Positions 16,223 to 26,036 of a stretch of 32,000 bases of DNA are shown in pieces (within the stretch, counting starts at the first letter, position 1; every line of letters starts with the position of its first letter). The position numbers and the translations under genes were made by a program. Source of the stretch: an uncultured Lentisphaeria bacterium. GTDB taxonomy: Bacteria > Verrucomicrobiota > Lentisphaeria > JABSQK01 > JAJFLO01. The notes under the pieces were generated by a model, which saw only the letters and a list, made by a program, of their open reading frames with translations, was not told where the DNA came from and did not search any database. The stretch spans positions 30,001-62,000 of the forward strand of contig OX638337.1 in the NCBI GenBank assembly GCA_951812855.1, in the 5' to 3' direction.

Positions 16223-17308
16223 CTATTCGCCTGATTTTCGACGGTTGCAATCCTTGCATAGCATCTGGCAGTTTTCGGCAATGGTCTTTCCGCCCTTGGT
16301 CCACGGCGTGATATGGTCGGCTTCCATTTCTTCTAATTTAAAATGCTCATTGCACCTCGCACAGGTGCCCTTTTTCTGCTCATACGCCTCTCGCTTTTGC
16401 TTATCTGTAAAGGCACGGACGTTTAGATGTTTTTCTTCTCCTGTCAGCAGATAGGCATAAATGCCTTTTTTACTGGTTACATCCTCATCTTCCATCAATT
16501 TTGCAACCCGTTTTTCTAAGGCATCCGGGTCGTATGTTTCATCTTTGTAGGTATTGTAAAAGTCTCCCCACCGCAAGCCTTTCATTTCTTTTTTACGGTA
16601 ATTCGGGAAAGTCTTTTGCGTCCACTCAATAACCCTTTGAAAATAATCCCACAGTTTTTTTGCATCGGACTCGTGTTGATGTGTACCCATATACTCTTCT
16701 ATCGTGCCATTGCTGAACCATTTGATGGCTGTCTCCAGATAGTCCTGTCTGATGGGGCTGCCGCTTAGGTATTTGTTACCCACTGGATAAGCAGGACAAT
16801 CCGTTTTGCTGAAATATCTTTTGGCATCGGTTACCCAAGAACCATGATAAACCGCATTTCGCAATTCCTGGTCGGTCAGTTTTTCGCCAGCGATATTGAT
16901 AGTCTTGAACCATTCCAGTTTTTCGCTGTCGGTGCCAGTGCATTGATAAATCATTAATTTATAATTTAAGATTTTTTCTTGTTCGTCATCTTGTAAACTA
17001 TAAAAATATCTTTTTTCAACAGAAAAAACACCCTTTACATATCGGCAAATGGAGACCGTGCGCTGTTGGCCGTCAATAATCTCAAAATTGTCATCACCAC
17101 GCACGGCCCAATACATGACATTTAATGGAAAGCCTTTGTTTATGGTGTCAATAACGGCATCGCGCTGTGCCTCTTTATAGATAAACTCACGCTGATACGG
17201 CGGGCGAATATCCAGCTTGCTGCCGTAGCCCTTAGCGCCGTTTTCCTGGTTGTCTTCATAGCCGTCTGCCAATTCGCGAACGGTTATCTCTTTGAGTGTT
17301 ATATCCAT
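16223..17308 (-). CDS. DUF262 (ParB/GmrSD-N-like, DGQQR motif) - HNH endonuclease fusion; candidate type IV / modification-dependent restriction nuclease
   Basis: IRPPYQREF and IIDGQQRT are the DUF262 signatures. The C-terminus CARCN...ADHITPWTKGG...NCQMLCKDCNRRK is a classical HNH zinc-finger nuclease motif. Confidence 0.8.
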   Translation of the reverse strand: MDITLKEITVRELADGYEDNQENGAKGYGSKLDIRPPYQREFIYKEAQRDAVIDTINKGFPLNVMYWAVRGDDNFEIIDGQQRTVSICRYVKGVFSVEKRYFYSLQDDEQEKILNYKLMIYQCTGTDSEKLEWFKTINIAGEKLTDQELRNAVYHGSWVTDAKRYFSKTDCPAYPVGNKYLSGSPIRQDYLETAIKWFSNGTIEEYMGTHQHESDAKKLWDYFQRVIEWTQKTFPNYRKKEMKGLRWGDFYNTYKDETYDPDALEKRVAKLMEDEDVTSKKGIYAYLLTGEEKHLNVRAFTDKQKREAYEQKKGTCARCNEHFKLEEMEADHITPWTKGGKTIAENCQMLCKDCNRRKSGE

Positions 17309-17441: not shown

Positions 17442-17834
17442 TCAACGAGCTGCTGTTTTTTTGCGATCTTGTTTTTCAGTTGCAAGCGTTTTTGCCACTT
17501 TACTAAACTCTCTTACTTTGGCAAAGGTCTCAATAATCTGAAGCGTGGCTTTGGTCGCCTCTTTTGATTTGAGAATGGTTGCCAGCATATACAAGCCCTT
17601 TTCGGTAAATGCCTTGGGAAGTTTTACTTTTCCTCCCTTTGAAGTCGCATTTTGCGACTTCAAAGTATTTGTGTCCTTTTGATGAGATAAAATCACATTT
17701 TCTGATTGTATAGCAAGCGCAGGCCGTTCTGTAGTGGTTTTGTAGCTTGAATCGGGGCATGTAGGACAGCGTAGATAAAGGCAAGAATCTGTTCTGGGGC
17801 GGACGATTTTGCGGGTAAGGTTTTTTATTAGCAC
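17442..17834 (-). pseudogene. Chimeric remnant: C-terminal half of an ORF6N/KilA-N-type DNA-binding domain preceded by unrelated sequence
   Basis: SKGGKVKLPKAFTEKGLYMLATILKSKEATKATLQIIETFAKVRE matches the distal half of ORF6N-type domains, but the usual N-terminal half is absent. The ORF ends just after an A7 run (T7 on the plus strand at 17456-17462). A7 to A6 would extend it by about 36 codons, to 17345. A different frame at 17753-17797 encodes a fragment of another protein family. Confidence 0.5.
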
Positions 17835-17861
17835 GGAAATCGGGTGTGAAATTTGCGGTTT

Positions 17862-18794
17862 TTAGACGGAGAAATCTAAGTAGTAGGTTTCATTGTCTAT
17901 CTTGTATATTGTAACTTCTTTGCGACCGTATCTTTCTAAGTCTTCTACTCTGACCCGCTCCCCATATTCTACGCCTAATCTATTTCTAAAATATCTACCC
18001 ATAATGCTATTGTTTTCGGTTGTGTGGATGGCCTTTCCTTGCTCTTGTGCAACAACGCATATCATCGAAATATCATCGTCAGTTAGGATGGTAAATGGCA
18101 CTCCCAAAGGAGGTAAAATATTCCTCTCACGCTCTTCTATGGGAACAGGAATGTAAGCTTGGTCTAGGTTTCTGCCTTTTCTTTGCCCCCAATTTAGCCC
18201 AGCCTTTTCATGTACTTTGCCTTCCCGATTTTTTTGAGTCATGTAAAGAGGAAGGGTAACGCTAGGCAATTCTTTATTGCTTATTGCAGGATAATCTATT
18301 TTCTCTGGAATGGAAAAATGTTGATCTAGTTCGTGGGCATTACAAAATGCAGTTCTTTTGCGTGTTTTCTCTATAAATTTGAATGCTTTTTGCGGGTCTG
18401 TTATCGCCAAAACTTCTTGTTGTTGGGAGGGTAAAAATCCGTTGCTTGTGTAGTTCGCAGATCCAACATAGGCCGCGATAGGATTTTTTTCATTACTAAA
18501 AAGATAAACTTTGGCATGAACAGATGGCGAGCAAATTAAATAGTCGCAAACAAAATTTTTGTATATTTTGCATACTTGACAGAATCCTAAATGCTTTGGT
18601 CTGTCTATAGCGTTTTTTAAGGACATGCCAATCGTTAAGTGTATTTTTGCCTCGATATTATTGTTCTTAAGTTCTAGTAAATGTTTATCTGCCATAGATG
18701 GAGACGCATAACCAGAGACGATATCTAGTTTTGTGGCTTCATTGTTAAGAAATGGTTCAAGTAAAATTTTTGTAAATAAGTTTTCACTTAACAT
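17862..18794 (-). CDS. Type II restriction endonuclease, NgoFVII/BfiI-like (N-terminal PLD/HKD nuclease + C-terminal DNA-recognition domain)
   Basis: PLD-type HxK...GSxN motif in VHAKVYLFSNEKNPIAAYVGSANYT. The C-terminal LNWGQRKGRNLDQAYIPV...TDDD...MGRYFRNRLGV...YGR pattern is typical of the NgoFVII C-terminal domain. The start overlaps the C5-MTase stop by 7 nt. Confidence 0.78.
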   Translation of the reverse strand: MLSENLFTKILLEPFLNNEATKLDIVSGYASPSMADKHLLELKNNNIEAKIHLTIGMSLKNAIDRPKHLGFCQVCKIYKNFVCDYLICSPSVHAKVYLFSNEKNPIAAYVGSANYTSNGFLPSQQQEVLAITDPQKAFKFIEKTRKRTAFCNAHELDQHFSIPEKIDYPAISNKELPSVTLPLYMTQKNREGKVHEKAGLNWGQRKGRNLDQAYIPVPIEERERNILPPLGVPFTILTDDDISMICVVAQEQGKAIHTTENNSIMGRYFRNRLGVEYGERVRVEDLERYGRKEVTIYKIDNETYYLDFSV

Positions 18795-19888
18795 GGTGCG
18801 ATGCCGTATTTTTGCAGTGCCGTGAGGATTGCCCGGCAGATGACTTCTACGCCTTTTGGTGGCACTGCCATGCCGATTTGGCGGCGGACACTTTCTTTAC
18901 CACCGATAAATTCAAAGTTGTCGGGAAAAGTTTGTAGCCTTGCCCTTTCTCTATTTGTCAACGCTCTCGGTTCTTGCCAATGATAAACATGCGTTCCACC
19001 TCCACCAGAGCCTGTGACAGTGTAGGCAGGTTTGGATGGATCAAGTCTTTTGTAGATTTGACTGATAGCCGCCTTGCTTTTTAATTTTAATTTTAATTTT
19101 TCAGGAAGTTGGGCATTGAATGCGTTTTGTCCTGGTTTTATATGTTTTAGCCTTTCTATGACTTGCTTTGACTGCGTTGTAAAATCGTGGTTTAGGGCAT
19201 TGGGTTGTAGAGGCGGTGATTCTAGTGCTTCCTTACAGGTTATTATTTTCGTTTCGTTCGGTTGTGGGTGTTTGAAATCTATTTTTATGTCGTCTCTAAA
19301 TCCGACAATTATGATGCGATGGCGGCGTTGCGGCACGCCGTAATACTCAAATTTGTAAAGATTAGTGTGAATGTTGTAGCCACATTCTTGGATAGCACAA
19401 CAGATCCTTTCAAATGTGTCTTTGTTGTCGGCAGAGAGAAGGCCGCCGACATTTTCGGCTATAAAAAATTGAGGCTGGAAATGTTCAAGTGCTCTTACGC
19501 TGTGCATATACAAGCTCCCGTATTTTCCTTGAATACCTTTTTGCTCGCCTACTACGCTGAAATCGTTACATGGAAAGCCGAAAAACAAACCGTCAATAGG
19601 GTTAAAATCATCAAACTCTAGCGTGGAAATGTCAGCACATCGAACTTTACTGTTCTCTATTTTGATGTTTTTTCGGAAAGTTTCGCAAGAGTCTTTATGG
19701 TAGTCACAAGCCCAGATGTGGGACATTTTATAGGACTTGTATTGTGCTTTTTCTGCGCCTAATGCCATTCCACCAGGCCCACTGAATAGCTCGCCTATTT
19801 TGAAGGTGTTTTTGACAGATTGTTCTTGACTGCCTTGATAATCTTCAGTTAGTTCTTTGATTGAAATTTCTTTAAGCGTTATTTCCAT
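18788..19888 (-). CDS. DNA (cytosine-5)-methyltransferase
   Basis: All canonical C5-MTase motifs occur in order: FSGPGG (I), GFPCNDFS (IV), ENV in FIAENVGGL (VI), QRRHRIIIVG (VIII), TFPDNFEF, RQIGMAVPP (X). It has an unusual N-terminal extension of about 30 aa. Confidence 0.92.
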   Translation of the reverse strand: MEITLKEISIKELTEDYQGSQEQSVKNTFKIGELFSGPGGMALGAEKAQYKSYKMSHIWACDYHKDSCETFRKNIKIENSKVRCADISTLEFDDFNPIDGLFFGFPCNDFSVVGEQKGIQGKYGSLYMHSVRALEHFQPQFFIAENVGGLLSADNKDTFERICCAIQECGYNIHTNLYKFEYYGVPQRRHRIIIVGFRDDIKIDFKHPQPNETKIITCKEALESPPLQPNALNHDFTTQSKQVIERLKHIKPGQNAFNAQLPEKLKLKLKSKAAISQIYKRLDPSKPAYTVTGSGGGGTHVYHWQEPRALTNRERARLQTFPDNFEFIGGKESVRRQIGMAVPPKGVEVICRAILTALQKYGIAPC

Positions 19889-19891
19889 TTT

Positions 19892-20499
19892 TTATATTTT
19901 TTGATTTTGAGACTCATCTTTTTTTAAGGTAAAACTCCCTTTTGTCATTCTATCAGTAAAGTAATTGCCTTTTAATTCGTTATCTGCTAACTCCAAAGTA
20001 ACGGTGCCATAATGTTTGATTAAATCATCTGCTATATTGTCTGGATTATTAAAATAATTATAAATAAGCTCATCTTTATTATTCTCTGCTCGGATAAGAC
20101 AATTAATAACCACACTTCTGGATTGTTTAAAATTAGCGTTGATAGTAATATCAGTTAAAGTTTGTTTAATAGTAATCTTTACTTTAAATTTTTTGTTTTC
20201 AACATCTTCCTTATAAGTGCTTCTTCCTTATAAGTGCTTCTTCCTTCTCCGCTCCATTTTCCGCTAAAGTTTGGGATTTGTTCTTTGATGATAGGTAGAT
20301 GGAAAAACCACTCTGACAAGCAATTAAAAATAACAAAATGATTTATCAACAAACTAAAAGTAAAAATAGTTAAAGCCGTTGATATATCGTTTAAAAAAAT
20401 ATTTAAAAACCCAGTTAAGCAAAAAGTAACTAAAAAAGACAGAACAAGGGAGAGTGTGAAAGCATAATACTCTACTTTAAAATTTTTGAGATATTTCAT
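19892..20499 (-). pseudogene. CBASS effector, 2TM + beta-strand-rich C-terminal domain (Cap15 / S-2TM-beta-like), frameshifted by a 17-bp tandem duplication
   Basis: The two track ORFs 20179..20499 (two hydrophobic helices, then FSGKWSGEGRSTYKE) and 19892..20113 are joined into one 591-nt (196-aa) ORF with no stop if one copy of the 17-bp repeat is removed. The start overlaps the CD-NTase stop as ATGA. Confidence 0.7.
20207..20240. repeat. Perfect 17-bp tandem duplication (TTCCTTATAAGTGCTTC x2; 6 further matching nt follow)
   Basis: Read directly: 20207-20223 is identical to 20224-20240, and 20241-20246 (TTCCTT) repeats the unit start. 17 is not a multiple of 3. Confidence 0.95.
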
Positions 20500-21353
20500 C
20501 CTGTTACATACTCAATGACTTTTTTGAGAAATTGATGGCAATCTGTTAAATTCCATTTTGTGCTTTCATCACCAAATAAAGGTTGAATCTCATTCTGACA
20601 TTTTAAATTTTTTAAATCATTATCTCGTAACCAATTTAAACAATTAGCCAATAGAGAAGTAAAATAACTTTCATTAAATTTATCATTTGGCACATTGTAA
20701 ATTAAACATTCTACAAAGTAGGAAGGTGCTAAGCTTTCATCTATCCAATTTTCTTTAATCATCTGCCTTTTAATATTTTTAAAAATTCGCACCATCTTTT
20801 TATAATTTCCTGTTCTGCTATTCTTTTCTTCTCCATTTTGTTTATGGATTTTAGGATAGTTAATAATCTCACCTTTTGAGGATTGTATTTTTATTCCCTC
20901 ATAGTATTGCTTTTCTCCACGGTCATAATGATTTTTGTATTGAAAACAAGGTACTAAATCTACATTTTGCCAATGCTCACCTCTTAAATGTAATTCAATA
21001 CATTTATTTTTTTCTTTGTAAGAAATTCTTTCTCTGTTTAAAACACTTTTAATTTCATTTCTGAGTGCTTCTTGAGTGTAACTGCTTGGATTGTTATAAA
21101 TACTTGGATTGTAGTTATAGTTATAGTAAAAAGTCTCATTAAACTGTAAAATAATATCTATGTCACCATCAGCCCAGATATTCGTATTATTGGCAACAGA
21201 TCCTTGTAAATAAATTTCAAAATTATTTGAATTATTAAAACAAACACCTCTAAAAATATCCTTTACTTTATCGTAAGTTGCTGTATTTTTATTGAGCTGA
21301 ACACGGTTTGCCCAAGTTGCTAATTGTTGTTCTTGTATTGTTATATTTGTCAT
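20496..21353 (-). CDS. cGAS/DncV-like nucleotidyltransferase (CD-NTase, SMODS-type) of a type I CBASS
   Basis: Pol-beta NTase signature LQGSVANNTNIWADGDIDIIL (GS...DxD). Third acidic residue context NVDLVPCF. SMODS-like APSYFVECLIYNVP. Followed by a translationally coupled 2TM effector gene. Confidence 0.8.
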   Translation of the reverse strand: MTNITIQEQQLATWANRVQLNKNTATYDKVKDIFRGVCFNNSNNFEIYLQGSVANNTNIWADGDIDIILQFNETFYYNYNYNPSIYNNPSSYTQEALRNEIKSVLNRERISYKEKNKCIELHLRGEHWQNVDLVPCFQYKNHYDRGEKQYYEGIKIQSSKGEIINYPKIHKQNGEEKNSRTGNYKKMVRIFKNIKRQMIKENWIDESLAPSYFVECLIYNVPNDKFNESYFTSLLANCLNWLRDNDLKNLKCQNEIQPLFGDESTKWNLTDCHQFLKKVIEYVTG

Positions 21354-21454: not shown

Positions 21455-21934
21455 TTAGTCTTTATTATATTTAGAAAGATCAATATCTTTCCGTTTTAGC
21501 ATTTCAAAAGTATCGACACAATCAATATCAAATTCTTTACAAATATTTGGTATTGAAGCTTTTTTAGCACCTTTCCCTAAAAAATTTTCGTGAGTGACAA
21601 TTACAATATTATATTCTTTAGCAACACACACTAACAAATAATCAGCTACATTTAGAAATTTACCAGCCTGTTCTGAGCTATAGTTTTTATAAATATAGTC
21701 AGATAACATTTGTTGGTTAGTTAATGGTTTATCATAAGAAAAAATTTTTACCGCCTTAACAAGATTCTCTAAAGTATCTTTATCTTTACCTTTGCGGATT
21801 TCGTCTTTAACTTCTTGTAAAGTAAAAATATCTTCTTCTTCTTTTAAGTATTCCCAAAAACTGGAAACTATCTTTTCTTGATAATATCGTCTATAAGCCT
21901 CAATGAATACGTTTGTATCTAAAAGATATCTCAT
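21455..21934 (-). CDS. DUF4411 PIN-like nuclease-fold protein
   Basis: The N-terminus MRYLLDTNVFIEAYRRYY...FWEYL is the PIN-like / DUF4411 signature. The ATGA overlap with the upstream ImmA gene suggests translational coupling. Confidence 0.75.
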   Translation of the reverse strand: MRYLLDTNVFIEAYRRYYQEKIVSSFWEYLKEEEDIFTLQEVKDEIRKGKDKDTLENLVKAVKIFSYDKPLTNQQMLSDYIYKNYSSEQAGKFLNVADYLLVCVAKEYNIVIVTHENFLGKGAKKASIPNICKEFDIDCVDTFEMLKRKDIDLSKYNKD

Positions 21935-23031
21935 AAAGGCAAGCCAAGTTGGCGATAATATTTATTAAAAGTCTCTCCCTTCAGCCCCGTAAGACTATAG
22001 GCATCTCTGTAAAGAGTTTCGCCTGCTAAAGTAGAATGAACTACACGAAGTAAAAAAGTCTCTCCGCCTGCTTTAAATGGGGCAGTACGATAATAATCGC
22101 CTCCACTGCCTTTAGATTTTATTCTTTGTATATTTTCTATACAATCCTTCCATTGCCTTTGAAATTCATATTCTCTAATTAAACTGGATTGTTTTGCTTT
22201 TATCAAAACAACAAAAACACTTATTTTAAATTTTTTTGCTATCCCCTCTATATTGTCAATATTAAAATATTCTTTTTTTAATTCCTTTGCAGGTAATAAA
22301 ATTTCTGATGCTATCTTATTACATGTTTTCTCCGTTTGTAAATGATATGTTCCGTCTAAAGCACTTTCATTTAAAAATAAGTGTGCCAGTTCATGGATAA
22401 GAGTAAAAATTTGACTGGATTTATAATCCCTGCCATTAATAAAAATTGCAGGAGCATATTCATCAAACAAACAAAATCCCTTAAATTCCTCTCTGTCCAA
22501 TCCTCTGCTGGTATTGCTCCCCACCACTCCATTTCTTATAATTAAAAATTCTTTGTCATCGAGTTTCTTTATTAAATTACTTAAAAAATCTTCTTGTGTC
22601 CTGCTCTCACTTCGTAATTTATCTATATCTAATAATCTTTTTATTTCAGTAATTATTTCTTTTTCACCTGTATATTTATAAGAAAAAATTTTATCCTCGC
22701 CATCTTGTATCTTTTGTTCTCTTAACCAATTTTGTTTTCTTTGAGAATCATAAATAGTTTCTAAAAGGTTAATACCTGGTTTTTCTAATTCTTTATTGTT
22801 TATTGTTCTAAAATCAGGAATAGGCAATTCTTCTTTTGGTGGCTCGGAAAGGAATAAATAACCATAAGGAACATAAAATTTTTCAGCTATTTTTTTTATT
22901 TGTTTTTCGGTAGGTTGAGACTTTCCTTCTTCCCAATCAGGATATTTACGAGAAGCAATTTTTTTTACAGCCTCTTCTAAACTGAGTTCAGCCCGCTCTC
23001 TTGCCCATTTTAATAATTCTGGATTAACCAT
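21931..23031 (-). CDS. XRE-type HTH fused to an ImmA/IrrE (COG2856) zinc metallopeptidase
   Basis: N-terminal LKWARERAELSLEEAVKKI is HTH-like. HEXXH zinc site in LIHELAHLFL. 366 aa. Confidence 0.8.
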   Translation of the reverse strand: MVNPELLKWARERAELSLEEAVKKIASRKYPDWEEGKSQPTEKQIKKIAEKFYVPYGYLFLSEPPKEELPIPDFRTINNKELEKPGINLLETIYDSQRKQNWLREQKIQDGEDKIFSYKYTGEKEIITEIKRLLDIDKLRSESRTQEDFLSNLIKKLDDKEFLIIRNGVVGSNTSRGLDREEFKGFCLFDEYAPAIFINGRDYKSSQIFTLIHELAHLFLNESALDGTYHLQTEKTCNKIASEILLPAKELKKEYFNIDNIEGIAKKFKISVFVVLIKAKQSSLIREYEFQRQWKDCIENIQRIKSKGSGGDYYRTAPFKAGGETFLLRVVHSTLAGETLYRDAYSLTGLKGETFNKYYRQLGLPL

Positions 23032-23033
23032 AG

Positions 23034-23124
23034 CCTTTTGTTTTTGATGATGATTCTAAAATCAGGAGGATTGGGAGAAAATTTTCCACAAATGCAAGCA
23101 ACATCTTAGATGTCAGTAATTCTC
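23034..23124. repeat. 91-bp direct repeat, copy B (leader of the ImmA-DUF4411 operon; overlaps the last 4 codons of the GHKL gene)
   Basis: See copy A. The palindrome GAAAATTTTC lies at 23077-23086. Confidence 0.9.
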
Positions 23125-24987
23125 TTTCTTAATAATATCTAAAAAAGTTTTATTACGTGCTCGAGCGTTAGAGATAACCTCTTCTGCAGATATTACATAA
23201 AGGTACAGAGATAATTTTTCATAGTATTTGAAATAAATCTTTTCCCTGGTTGAGAATAACAATTTGAAATCATCATTCTTTAGTTTTTGCTCAAAATCAT
23301 CACCTATATTGGTAATCAAGTAATACCAAACGTTGTTTAACTTTTCTGCTCCTTTGAAGCTGTTAGCATATTCTCTTATCTCCTCTAATCCAGCGAATTT
23401 CTTTTTTCCATCTATATTTAAAGCCTTGAGTTCTATAATGACCGCATTATAATTGCCTTCTTCTTTCTGGAAAAATATTGAAATGTCCGGTCTGCCCCGG
23501 TCTTGATTATTTGATTGAGGGAATATTTTTTTTAAACTTTCTTTTATACTTTTTTCGCTGGCTGCATAACTATAACTCATAAATTTATCGTCAATAAGCC
23601 AAATATTATTTTCTGCAGGACCAAGATATTTTTTACTTCCTTTTTCGGTATCTGAACCTCTCTCCATCAATAAATTATGCAGCACCTTTTCCTTTCCGTT
23701 GTGCTTTTGACTTAAAGTTTCTAATTCTGATATTATTTTATCTCGCATTAAAATATATTCTGTCAGTTCTTGACCTGCTAATGTGCTTGCTTTTTTAAGC
23801 AATTCATTACTTCTATATTTTTTACCTTCCACTTCCTTTCTGAAAGATTGTTTTTCTTTTAAAAATTTTTCTTCGGCTTGTTTAATAATATTTTCTTGTT
23901 TGATCAAGCCTCCTAAATAATTTATATCTCCAAGATAATCTACTAAATGTAAATGTTTACGTTTAATTCTTTTAATTATTTCTTTATACTCGTCTTCTAA
24001 TTCTGGAAATTTTTCTTTTAAAATAGTTGCAATCTCCTGATCTAATCCTTGATTGATCATCTCCCAGGAAAAATCGCCAAACAATGTATCTTTTGCTTGA
24101 TTAGGGTTCATGGAAAAATCATTCCTCTCATTATCTACTTTATCATCTAAAAAATCAGAGGATAATAAAAAGATGATTTGACATTCATCTATCGGATTAA
24201 TGGAAAAATTTTTATTTTTATCTTTAAACCTACAAACTGTTCGGGAATTAGCACAGTAGAATCCTCGCATTTTGTTCAAATCCTTTAAACTCAATTCTTC
24301 TATGGAGTAATTTAGAATAAATTCAACATCCTGTTCTCTTGTATCTTTTATGTTGAATGAATGTTCTTCAAAAGTCGGTAAATCGGACGTTTTAATATTA
24401 GCTTCGTCATTGCTGTCTTTATTTTCTAAAGTAATGACAATGTTGGAATCCCTCTTTAAATACAATAACGGCAACAAATGACTATATAGTTTATCTCTCA
24501 CTGCTTGAATGGAATAAAAACTATTTATCTTTGGGTCAATACCATTGAATTCTATTGTAGTTTTATTGTTTTTTATATTGTTTTTTTCAACTTTTGTTAT
24601 ATGCTTTTCTTCTTCAAATTTTTCGCTAAAATTTATCTTGACGAGTTTTTTCTCTTCTTTTACTAAACTTTCTATCTTAATATCTGAGAAAATTTTTAAG
24701 AAGGAAATTCTTCCTATTCCTTTACATCCTAAATCTATTTTTTCTTTCGTGCCGTATTCACAAAAAGACTCAATATTTTTATCTGTAAAACCCTTGCCAT
24801 TATCAATGACAGAAAGTTTTTCTAAACAGGTTTTTTCTTGCTGTAATGATAATTCATTATAATATTCTATACGGATTTTTATATCAGTTGCTTCTGCTTG
24901 TATGGAATTAGTAACTGCCTCTTGCAGAACGGTCAACGGGTTAACTTTTTTAAGATTAGAAACCATTCTAGGGAGATTGATTTTCAT
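23113..24987 (-). CDS. GHKL (HATPase_c_3 / MORC-MutL-like) ATPase fused to a C-terminal PD-(D/E)xK nuclease-like domain
   Basis: Bergerat-fold motifs occur in order: N-box EAVTNSIQA, G1 VIDNGKGF, G2 GCKGIGRISF. A long Lys/Glu-rich middle region follows. C-terminal GRPDISIFF then about 18 aa then VIIELK gives a PD...ExK arrangement. Confidence 0.7.
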   Translation of the reverse strand: MKINLPRMVSNLKKVNPLTVLQEAVTNSIQAEATDIKIRIEYYNELSLQQEKTCLEKLSVIDNGKGFTDKNIESFCEYGTKEKIDLGCKGIGRISFLKIFSDIKIESLVKEEKKLVKINFSEKFEEEKHITKVEKNNIKNNKTTIEFNGIDPKINSFYSIQAVRDKLYSHLLPLLYLKRDSNIVITLENKDSNDEANIKTSDLPTFEEHSFNIKDTREQDVEFILNYSIEELSLKDLNKMRGFYCANSRTVCRFKDKNKNFSINPIDECQIIFLLSSDFLDDKVDNERNDFSMNPNQAKDTLFGDFSWEMINQGLDQEIATILKEKFPELEDEYKEIIKRIKRKHLHLVDYLGDINYLGGLIKQENIIKQAEEKFLKEKQSFRKEVEGKKYRSNELLKKASTLAGQELTEYILMRDKIISELETLSQKHNGKEKVLHNLLMERGSDTEKGSKKYLGPAENNIWLIDDKFMSYSYAASEKSIKESLKKIFPQSNNQDRGRPDISIFFQKEEGNYNAVIIELKALNIDGKKKFAGLEEIREYANSFKGAEKLNNVWYYLITNIGDDFEQKLKNDDFKLLFSTREKIYFKYYEKLSLYLYVISAEEVISNARARNKTFLDIIKKENY

Positions 24988-25040: not shown

Positions 25041-26036
25041 TCATTTTTGCGAGTCTCTGTTGCGGATGATGATTCTATTATAGATATTACGTCCATTTAT
25101 TTTTGTTAAGCATTCATACCCAATCCATCTTGCTGAGTTTGCTATCCCCAAAATCTCAAACTGATCCGGATTATATTTATCCATAAAGGTAATGGGTACG
25201 CCCATAGCACCGGCGTAGTCCATAGGGATTTCTTTTACCTTACTCACTTCAATGGCATCGTAGTTATCGTATGTTGGATAGTCGGCAGGCGTGTATTTTT
25301 TGTAGAGGATAAGTTCTTCATGACGTTTTTGGTGGTCTAAGTTGGTAAACCAGTTGATACTTCCTTTACTAAAATACTTCGTGCCGTTTTCTATTTTCTT
25401 CCGTGATTCGGTTTTTATATCGTAGTTGTCAGGGACGCGAAACCATTTTGTGCCGCCGTTATCATAACCGAGCCAGATTTTATTTTCTTTTATGAGCTTA
25501 AAAATTTCCTTGTAAGTGATTGCATTTTGATCTCCGATTATCACAAACTTCTTATCGTATTCAACAAGCTGCGACACATATTCACGAAACAGTGAGAACG
25601 GCGGGTTGGTAACGACAATATCGGCTTGCTCTAACAGCTTAATTGCCTCTGGACTGCGAAAATCGCCATCGCCTTTGAAGGCTTTAACACCTATCTCCTC
25701 CGGATCAGGTACTTTGTTGTGGTTTTTGTCGCCTTCGTATTCCAAATAGATGGCCTGTTCACAGTCGTGCTGACTGAATAAATCCATATTTTGATTTTTA
25801 TAGCAGGCGGTGATGAGTTTTTTTAAGCCGAATGCCTCAAACCCGTATGAAAAATAATGAAAAAAACCGCTGATACGCGGGTCATCGCAGTTGCAGTAAA
25901 CCGTTTTGTTTTTGAAATGATGCCAGTAGTGTTTCAGCTCATTTTCAATATCGGACAGTTGCGTATAAAACTCATCTTTTTTGGTGTTTTTGGCGGCGTG
26001 TAGATTGGTGTTTTTAGTTGCCTTGCTCATGGTCAT
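25041..26036 (-). CDS. N6-adenine DNA methyltransferase, EcoRI-methylase-like family
   Basis: Catalytic motif IV VVTNPPFSLFREY (NPPF). N-terminal KDEFYTQLSDIE...VYCNCDDP, and C-terminal YDNYDAIEVSK...MGVPITFMDKYNP, as I recall for this family. Confidence 0.78.
   Translation of the reverse strand: MTMSKATKNTNLHAAKNTKKDEFYTQLSDIENELKHYWHHFKNKTVYCNCDDPRISGFFHYFSYGFEAFGLKKLITACYKNQNMDLFSQHDCEQAIYLEYEGDKNHNKVPDPEEIGVKAFKGDGDFRSPEAIKLLEQADIVVTNPPFSLFREYVSQLVEYDKKFVIIGDQNAITYKEIFKLIKENKIWLGYDNGGTKWFRVPDNYDIKTESRKKIENGTKYFSKGSINWFTNLDHQKRHEELILYKKYTPADYPTYDNYDAIEVSKVKEIPMDYAGAMGVPITFMDKYNPDQFEILGIANSARWIGYECLTKINGRNIYNRIIIRNRDSQK

Follow-up and report, generated by a model that had tools for sequence, protein, structure and literature searches.

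A divergent GHKL-ATPase nuclease of the paraMORC3/VcSduA type in a Lentisphaeria defence island

The stretch of DNA analysed here, referred to as the window, comprises 32,000 nucleotides (nt) from an uncultured Lentisphaeria bacterium (GenBank assembly GCA_951812855.1, contig OX638337.1, positions 30,001 to 62,000). On its minus strand, at positions 23113-24987, lies a 624-residue open reading frame (ORF) with an ATG start, whose product carries the motifs of an N-terminal GHKL ATPase and of a C-terminal PD-(D/E)xK nuclease. A first-pass annotation had singled out this 624-residue frame, without giving its strand, and had proposed it as an undescribed single-protein defence system. Our analysis indicates that the gene is a genuine defence gene and that the claim of novelty fails, since the gene belongs, as a divergent new member, to a family already known and validated by experiment, that of VcSduA of Vibrio cholerae and of the computationally defined paraMORC3 proteins. 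We put the probability that it encodes a stand-alone anti-phage nuclease of this paraMORC3/GHKL-Shedu (VcSduA-type) family at roughly 80%.

When the protein was analysed with Pfam, a HATPase_c_3 domain was assigned to residues 19-139 (E 1e-12, over the curated cut-off) and no domain was found on the other 480 residues. The Bergerat motifs follow one another in canonical order, as had been claimed, with E23xxxN27 inside EAVTNSIQA (residues 23-31), then VIDNGKGF (residues 60-67; D62xGxG66) and GCKGIGRISF (residues 87-96; G87CKGIGR93). The strings that had been quoted as a PD...ExK signature are all present as well: EKVLHNLLMERG, which begins at residue 433 (E433KVLHNLL), NIWLIDDKF (residues 461-469), GRPDISIFF (residues 498-506; R499PD501) and VIIELK (residues 516-521; E519LK521). 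The spacing of about 18 residues reported between the last two is, however, the distance from D501 to E519, and the gap between the strings is 9 residues.

Conservation was measured on an alignment of 77 homologous sequences with a mean identity of 32%. The invariant residues are E23, N27, G64, G66, G90, G92, R93, L97, S107, L408, Y411, R415, E433, W463, S477, D501, E519, K521 and A608, and R249 and R288 are conserved. Since residues of both sets of motifs are invariant across 77 homologues at this level of identity, the GHKL and nuclease motifs are not chance resemblances. The frame and its key residues are placed as follows.

23113..24987, minus strand: complete ORF, 624 amino acids plus stop, for a paraMORC3/VcSduA-type GHKL-ATPase/PD-(D/E)xK nuclease (ORF listing, homologues and homology to the VcSduA clade).
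24907..24921, minus strand: motif I (N-box), E23-x3-N27, both residues invariant in the 77 sequences and E23 aligned with E27 of VcSduA.
24790..24804, minus strand: motif II (G1 box), D62-N-G-K-G66, with G64 and G66 invariant and D62 in at least 90% of sequences.
24709..24723, minus strand: motif III (G2 box), K89-G-I-G-R93, with G90, G92 and R93 invariant and K89 in at least 90% of sequences.
23689..23691, minus strand: E433, first acidic residue of the E-D-ExK signature, invariant in the 77 sequences.
23485..23487, minus strand: D501 of the RPD motif, invariant.
23425..23433, minus strand: E519-L-K521 (ExK motif), invariant, with K521 equivalent to K557 of VcSduA by way of VVEIK556 in a Vibrio fluvialis homologue.

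Antisense to the gene runs a 105-residue ORF with a TTG start (24545-24862, plus strand), whose low-complexity translation is rich in Phe, Ser and Leu and which is in all likelihood a by-product of AT-rich sequence.

An AlphaFold2 model of the whole protein, built on the same alignment, reached a mean predicted local distance difference test (pLDDT) score of 85.6 and a predicted template modelling (pTM) score of 0.74. Together with the structural searches it divides the protein as follows.

24523..24987, minus strand: residues 1-155, Bergerat (GHKL) ATP-binding domain (Pfam HATPase_c_3; AlphaFold2 secondary structure; Foldseek matches to SMCHD1, MORC, GyrB and Hsp90).
24073..24522, minus strand: residues 156-305, predicted beta-rich transducer domain (S5-like, or 'N24') with C245-A-N-x-R249 and N286-E-R288 (AlphaFold2; Foldseek).
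23704..24072, minus strand: residues 306-428, predicted helical connector of about 120 residues, holding the invariant L408, Y411 and R415 (AlphaFold2 helices at 308-326, 329-344, 364-388 and 394-427).
23116..23703, minus strand: residues 429-624, predicted C-terminal PD-(D/E)xK nuclease domain of restriction-endonuclease fold (separate AlphaFold2 model; Foldseek).

The linker of about 350 residues, Lys/Glu-rich and probably coiled-coil, which the first-pass annotation had placed between ATPase and nuclease, does not survive in this model: residues 100-155 complete the Bergerat fold, a beta-rich domain follows at about 160-300 (strands at 184-276, pLDDT about 80-96) and helices occupy only about 308-427. 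When the model was compared with the PDB using Foldseek, about 320-450 of its columns aligned with the ATPase modules of GHKL proteins, which consist of two domains. E values ran from 4e-12 to 1e-8 for SMCHD1 (E 4e-12), MORC4/3/2, the 43K fragments of ParE and GyrB, and Hsp90; TRAP1, HtpG, topoisomerase VI-B and MutL were matched as well. These matches bear out the GHKL assignment that the comparison had been proposed to check. Since the alignments run over both domains of these modules, the middle domain is, as modelled, the S5-like transducer of a GHKL clamp.

The C-terminal part was also modelled separately (residues 425-624; pLDDT 89.7, pTM 0.86). Its elements run as a helix carrying E433, a strand, a strand starting at D501, a strand ending in E519-x-K521, a long helix and a strand; in this predicted structure the order is that of the PD-(D/E)xK core, and from the topology E433, D501, E519 and K521 would cluster in space. 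The PDB matches of this domain were weak (E 0.012-0.15, TM-score about 0.3), with restriction-type nucleases making up the top eight and ten of the top 14 (EcoO109I, FokI, PaqCI, McrC, Cdn1, XisH and AspBHI). At E<=10, Pfam returned for the isolated C-terminal and middle segments a single sub-threshold match, to VRR_NUC (E 0.084); a profile hidden Markov model of the C-terminal domain recovered NucS alone among PDB sequences (E 1.6); and NCBIfam and a phmmer search of PDB sequences, both run with the whole protein, gave nothing informative past the GHKL N-terminus. Taken together, the HATPase_c_3 match, the invariant E-D-ExK residues and the topology of the model uphold the proposed fusion of a GHKL ATPase to a PD-(D/E)xK nuclease.

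This architecture, which had been called undescribed and uncharacterised, was defined as paraMORC3 in 2008, described as type 1D Shedu in 2023 and validated as VcSduA in 2025. The definition of paraMORC3 is computational and combines GHKL and S5 domains with a conserved C-terminal restriction-endonuclease-fold domain bearing E-D-ExK (Iyer, Abhiman & Aravind, Biol Direct 2008; PMC2292703). According to the same authors the distribution is wide but sporadic, and the family is prevalent among Proteobacteria and Bacteroidetes; the members with a nuclease stand alone, with no neighbourhood conserved around their genes; and paraMORCs lack the GhXhhpXXRhl motif of the MORC S5 domain. Gu et al. (2023) placed Shedu proteins with HATPase_c_3 and a transducer-like N24 domain in their type 1D ('enzymatic N-terminal domain') class.

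VcSduA itself (A1552VC_00276, AWB73059.1) is encoded on VSP-II of the V. cholerae WASA lineage (Adams et al., Nat Microbiol 2025; PMC12137116). A single protein of 673 residues, it combines GHKL motifs I-IV with a PD-(D/E)xK domain at the C-terminus, it protects Escherichia coli more than 10,000-fold against T1-like Drexlerviridae, and at native expression it protects V. cholerae against phage X29. Protection was abolished by E27A and by K557A, which are exactly the kind of ATPase and nuclease point mutants that the first-pass annotation had proposed. VcSduA works as one gene, and it protected at all multiplicities of infection (MOIs) tested without collapse of the culture, which argues for direct restriction rather than abortive infection. 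Its AlphaFold3 dimer is an entwined clamp; a tetramer model was reported as poorly supported, canonical SduA being a tetramer (all PMC12137116).

The protein encoded in the window was compared directly with the first 399 residues of VcSduA, and its C-terminus was compared through the V. fluvialis homologue. The latter, picked up by tblastn on a plasmid, shares 63% identity with VcSduA and carries E27 and the ExK lysine at 556. Against the 399 residues, BLASTP gave E 7e-13 and 25% identity over residues 10-305, with E23 opposite E27. Against the V. fluvialis protein the homology extended end to end (BLASTP E 2e-22 over residues 10-617), and hhalign gave a probability of 100% (E 9e-53, 588 columns) with K521 opposite K556. 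Furthermore, the table of 543 hits that Adams et al. retrieved with their VcSduA HMM includes members of the window protein's own subfamily. Gilliamella GYM75_RS11605 (30% identical over 413 residues, E 4e-31) is one of them; CINF_RS08480 of Candidatus Campylobacter infans and DACET_RS03265 of Denitrovibrio are others. Since subfamily members stand in the authors' own table and the homology is full length, the window protein is, as judged from sequence, a VcSduA homologue by the published operational criterion. By sequence and model it also shows every element of the paraMORC3 definition, namely the GHKL motifs, a predicted beta-rich transducer at about residues 160-300, the E-D-ExK domain and a stand-alone, sporadic gene; here the comparison was with the computational definition.

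The VcSduA-like clade numbers 2,532 proteins at E<=1e-10 and occurs in Vibrio, Klebsiella, Enterobacter, Proteus and Aeromonas; contigs of about 90-120 kb carry many of these proteins, and many have no precomputed Pfam domain. On the V. fluvialis plasmid (NZ_AP028130.1, 1-5980) a canonical Shedu gene (SduA_C, E 1e-25) overlaps the start of the VcSduA-like GHKL nuclease gene by 4 nt, and both follow hsdM and hsdS of a type I system.

To place the gene in its wider family, 5.8 billion proteins were searched, and 90 homologues were found, nearly all full length (about 600-700 residues). When 1.84 billion cluster representatives were scanned in full with HMMER, 1,355 proteins, each standing for a 50%-identity cluster, matched at E<=1e-30 and 4,088 at E<=1e-3. 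Among about 185,000 species-representative genomes there were 215 family loci (about 0.1%), patchily spread over more than ten phyla; the hosts include Bacteroidota, Verrucomicrobiota, Rickettsiales and other Alphaproteobacteria, Campylobacterota, Acidobacteriota, Planctomycetota, Clostridia, Melainabacteria and others. The closest homologues of the window protein are from metagenome assemblies, and Bacteroidota and Rickettsiales are among its named relatives. A second, word-indexed profile search of the homologues stayed within the family and reached no protein annotated with PF14082, and no homologue was found in phage records.

The possibility that the gene acts with a conserved partner was rejected after 797 ORFs had been called and clustered from 81 loci: the GHKL gene aside, the commonest neighbour family was found in 6 of the 81. 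This agrees with the single-protein action that had been proposed. The neighbours themselves are of the sort usual in defence and mobile islands. On the upstream side they include type III restriction enzymes (6), type IIG enzymes, type I specificity subunits, components of the methylation-associated defence system (MADS), HipA and DUF4276/AAA_21, and on the downstream side IS1595 and Mu transposases, DarT, KAP NTPase and McrBC. The genes of close relatives are placed within a type I operon, next to a phage lysozyme and an MmeI-like enzyme, behind an integrase, or by themselves among housekeeping genes. In several Bacteroidota loci (L014, L018, L019 and L039; also L007) the GHKL nuclease gene lies 21-101 nt downstream, on the same strand, of a type III Res-like gene for 870-990 residues, and at another locus (L096) it lies between hsdS and a split hsdR. 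This recurrent placement in restriction-modification operons may be more than co-location.

How might such a protein work? On binding ATP, two protomers would dimerise through their N-terminal GHKL domains, as in MORC, MutL, GyrB and Hsp90, and the transducer domains and helical arms would close around a cavity in which DNA is captured. The binding and hydrolysis of ATP would then license or position the two C-terminal PD-(D/E)xK domains, and the captured invading DNA would be cut, the phage thus being restricted directly and the host cell not killed. The dimeric clamp, DNA as its substrate, the trigger and the discrimination between self and non-self are what we infer.

A different outcome for the cell would follow if the protein were an abortive-infection toxin, its GHKL domain sensing a phage protein or, in the manner of Hsp90, proteotoxic stress, and its nuclease then killing the cell indiscriminately. 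Gu et al. (2023) suggested that Hsp90-chaperone-like GHKL N-terminal domains may sense misfolded proteins, some Shedu proteins (PD-T4-8) have been proposed as abortive infection systems, and our Foldseek search also matched Hsp90, HtpG and TRAP1. However, the strongest structural matches, SMCHD1, ParE/GyrB and MORC, are GHKL proteins that act on DNA, and VcSduA protects at every MOI tested while the culture does not collapse (PMC12137116). We therefore regard a suicidal nuclease as very improbable.

Our preferred reading, a directly acting nuclease of the paraMORC3/VcSduA type, has to be set against several points. The clamp model comes from analogy and from the published AlphaFold3 dimer of VcSduA, and the sufficiency of a single gene, the need for the ATPase Glu and the nuclease Lys, and non-abortive protection were shown for the homologue VcSduA and would apply here by analogy. 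The window protein is 21-25% identical to the VcSduA clade. The PDB matches of the nuclease domain are not significant, and no Shedu structure is among the top 50. Pfam SduA_C (PF14082, DUF4263) does not match the window protein, even at E<=10 on the isolated nuclease domain, and the search for a known system that the first-pass annotation had recommended ended with no PADLOC v2 model matching the GHKL protein. When ten canonical SduA_C domains were compared by hhalign with a C-terminal-domain profile of 76 sequences, the match was weak (probability 46%, pairwise E 2e-4, 88 columns). Finally, a methylase gene stands on the same strand 53 nt upstream, and the nuclease could in principle depend on it as in a restriction-modification pair.

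As for the Shedu models, on a canonical Shedu protein the same searches gave SduA_C at E 1e-25 and more than 20 PADLOC SduA models up to E 4e-170, and these models also miss the VcSduA-like V. fluvialis protein. In the weak hhalign match the D, ExK and Q motifs are in register. The resemblance to Shedu noted in the first-pass annotation was apt in that published work classes this architecture as type 1D Shedu; it does not extend to the Pfam SduA_C and PADLOC SduA models. We accordingly file the window protein as a paraMORC3/VcSduA-type GHKL nuclease and keep 'Shedu' as a label from the literature, its standing in the strict DUF4263 sense being less clear.

A more novel reading is that the window subfamily, centred on Bacteroidota and Rickettsiales, is not Shedu at all and is instead a separate lineage of GHKL-clamp nucleases with a RecB/NucS-like nuclease domain. 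Such proteins would work with restriction-modification modules as an ATP-dependent 'second nuclease', with self and non-self set by host methylation. Examples of such contexts are the EcoRI-like methylase in the window, the operons of type I and type III systems at other loci and, at the locus of a 54%-identical homologue (L095), an array of near-identical methylase copies with a different nuclease after each. We consider a separate lineage improbable and retain the placement in the VcSduA/paraMORC3 family.

The surroundings of the gene in the window were then considered. As had been noted, they form a defence island. Its genes encode, in order, an EcoRI-like methylase, the GHKL nuclease, a helix-turn-helix (HTH)-M78/DUF4411-PIN pair, a cyclic-oligonucleotide-based anti-phage signalling system (CBASS), a C5 methylase with an NgoFVII-like restriction enzyme, an ORF6N protein and a DUF262-HNH restriction enzyme, and the GHKL gene falls in a block of low guanine-plus-cytosine (GC) content (0.27-0.31 against 0.40).

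25041-26036, minus strand: EcoRI-like adenine methylase (Pfam EcoRI_methylase, E 5e-132).
21455-23031, minus strand: HTH and M78 (ImmA/IrrE-like) protein and DUF4411 PIN-like protein, overlapping by 4 nt (PADLOC RmrA and CapP matches for the M78 protein).
20179-21353, minus strand: type I CBASS, CD-NTase (PADLOC Cyclase, E 2e-74) and Cap15-like effector with two transmembrane segments.
17442-19888, minus strand: C5 cytosine methylase and NgoFVII-like (phospholipase D-type) restriction enzyme, overlapping by 7 nt, then an ORF6N protein (PADLOC candidate PDC-S05).
16223-17308, minus strand: DUF262 (GmrSD_N)/HNH protein (PADLOC Type II REase model end to end, E 2e-146).

With this island in view, the first alternative to weigh is that GHKL nuclease and methylase make up a two-gene system, in which the upstream EcoRI-like adenine methylase shields host DNA and the ATP-dependent nuclease, as the restriction component, cuts unmethylated DNA. 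No terminator-like site separates the two genes; the same adjacency, with a 4-nt overlap, is seen at L095; elsewhere in the family the gene is placed within a type I operon or follows a type III res gene directly; and Iyer et al. placed paraMORCs mainly in restriction-modification contexts (PMC2292703). However, L095 contains three copies of the methylase gene (93-95% DNA identity), each before a different gene; one of these encodes the GHKL nuclease, another an AriA/OLD-like ATPase and the third a DUF262-HNH protein. Since the three copies precede three unrelated genes, the adjacency is not specific to the GHKL gene. Linkage of methylase and GHKL gene was seen only in the window, its sister genome and the one 54%-identical homologue; EcoRI-type methylases are not among the commonest upstream-neighbour families of the 72 GTDB loci scanned, and several loci lack a methylase altogether; GC falls from 0.40 in the methylase gene to 0.29 in the GHKL gene; and VcSduA works alone in E. 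coli (PMC12137116). A better cognate for the methylase is also at hand in the DUF262/HNH protein at 16223-17308, which is 65% identical to the DUF262-HNH protein of L095, where the counterpart gene follows a copy of the same methylase gene by 9 nt. We conclude that a methylase-dependent nuclease is unlikely. The DUF262-HNH protein is the likelier cognate, its gene and that of the methylase being split in the window by about 7.7 kb of inserted defence genes.

The second alternative is that the protein is a housekeeping factor or one that maintains a mobile element, either a MutL/MORC-like ATPase of repair or DNA compaction or a nuclease serving the element through addiction or plasmid exclusion. 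The GHKL and transducer module does resemble those of MutL, MORC and SMCHD1, the MutL N-terminal model of NCBIfam matches weakly, transposases and integrases are frequent neighbours of the family, and Iyer et al. speculated that stand-alone paraMORC3 proteins may have gained other functions (PMC2292703). Nevertheless the family is extremely patchy, scattered over many phyla and present in about 0.1% of species representatives, the window gene lies with known defence genes in an island of low GC, and the validated homologue VcSduA is an anti-phage system (PMC12137116). Identity with MutL was rejected: the equivalog model TIGR00585 scored 21.9 bits against a cut-off of 180, over residues 17-77 only, and there is no MutL C-terminal endonuclease/dimerisation domain. 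Plasmid targeting, for its part, would itself still count as defence. Of the alternatives raised here we consider this the least probable, and the anti-phage nuclease of the paraMORC3/VcSduA type remains our reading.

Several further observations concern the island. A promoter scan returned promoter-like sites at chance level, and the single terminator-like site fell inside the methylase gene. At L095 (4955-13437) the methylase and DUF262-HNH genes are 9 nt apart, and the two further methylase copies precede the GHKL nuclease and AriA/OLD-like ATPase genes, which suggests that the island grew by recombination at the methylase gene; an ORF6N gene follows the GHKL gene at this locus. The HTH-M78/DUF4411-PIN pair, directly downstream of the GHKL gene in the window, does not travel with it at other loci and is probably a toxin-antitoxin-like or regulatory pair. 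In the window the CBASS effector gene is frameshifted by a 17-bp duplication (AAGGAAGAAGCACTTAT) at about 20230-20246, and in a sister genome (L094) it is an intact gene for 196 residues. These two genomes are near-identical and come from the same sample, with DNA identities of 99.5% for alr, 98.7% for the methylase gene and 100% for the CD-NTase gene, against 94.5% for the GHKL gene and 94.0% for the M78 gene (21931-23031). The divergence of the latter two points to local recombination or diversifying selection on both genes.

Since the divergent subfamily (1,355 clusters at 50% identity, E<=1e-30) is missed by PADLOC v2 and by Pfam SduA_C, censuses of defence systems undercount GHKL-Shedu/paraMORC3 genes. 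The compact version of 624 residues, with its confident model, is a reasonable target for biochemistry. The island, moreover, is a tidy example of growth, with defence genes nested between the methylase and restriction genes of a type II system and, at the related locus, tandem near-identical methylases separating different nucleases.

Compared with known systems, the window protein shares with MORC, SMCHD1, MutL and GyrB/ParE the fold and the order of motifs of its first 300-400 residues or so, and MutL and type II topoisomerases likewise couple a GHKL and transducer module to a nuclease. It differs from these proteins in having no TOPRIM, CW or chromatin-reader domain and no SMC hinge, and in that its predicted nuclease is of the restriction-endonuclease fold. 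With canonical Shedu SduA it has in common a single protein in which a C-terminal PD-(D/E)xK nuclease stands under a variable N-terminal domain. Loeff et al. are said to have reported in 2025 that canonical SduA senses free DNA ends. The closest parallel is VcSduA. The window protein is shorter and without the inserts that the VcSduA clade carries around the ExK strand, whereas the two are otherwise collinear: each is a single polypeptide of about 620-670 residues with an N-terminal GHKL domain, a clamp-like middle, a helical region and a C-terminal PD-(D/E)xK, the catalytic Glu (E27/E23) and Lys (K557/K521) align, and both genes sit in a defence island without a conserved partner gene.

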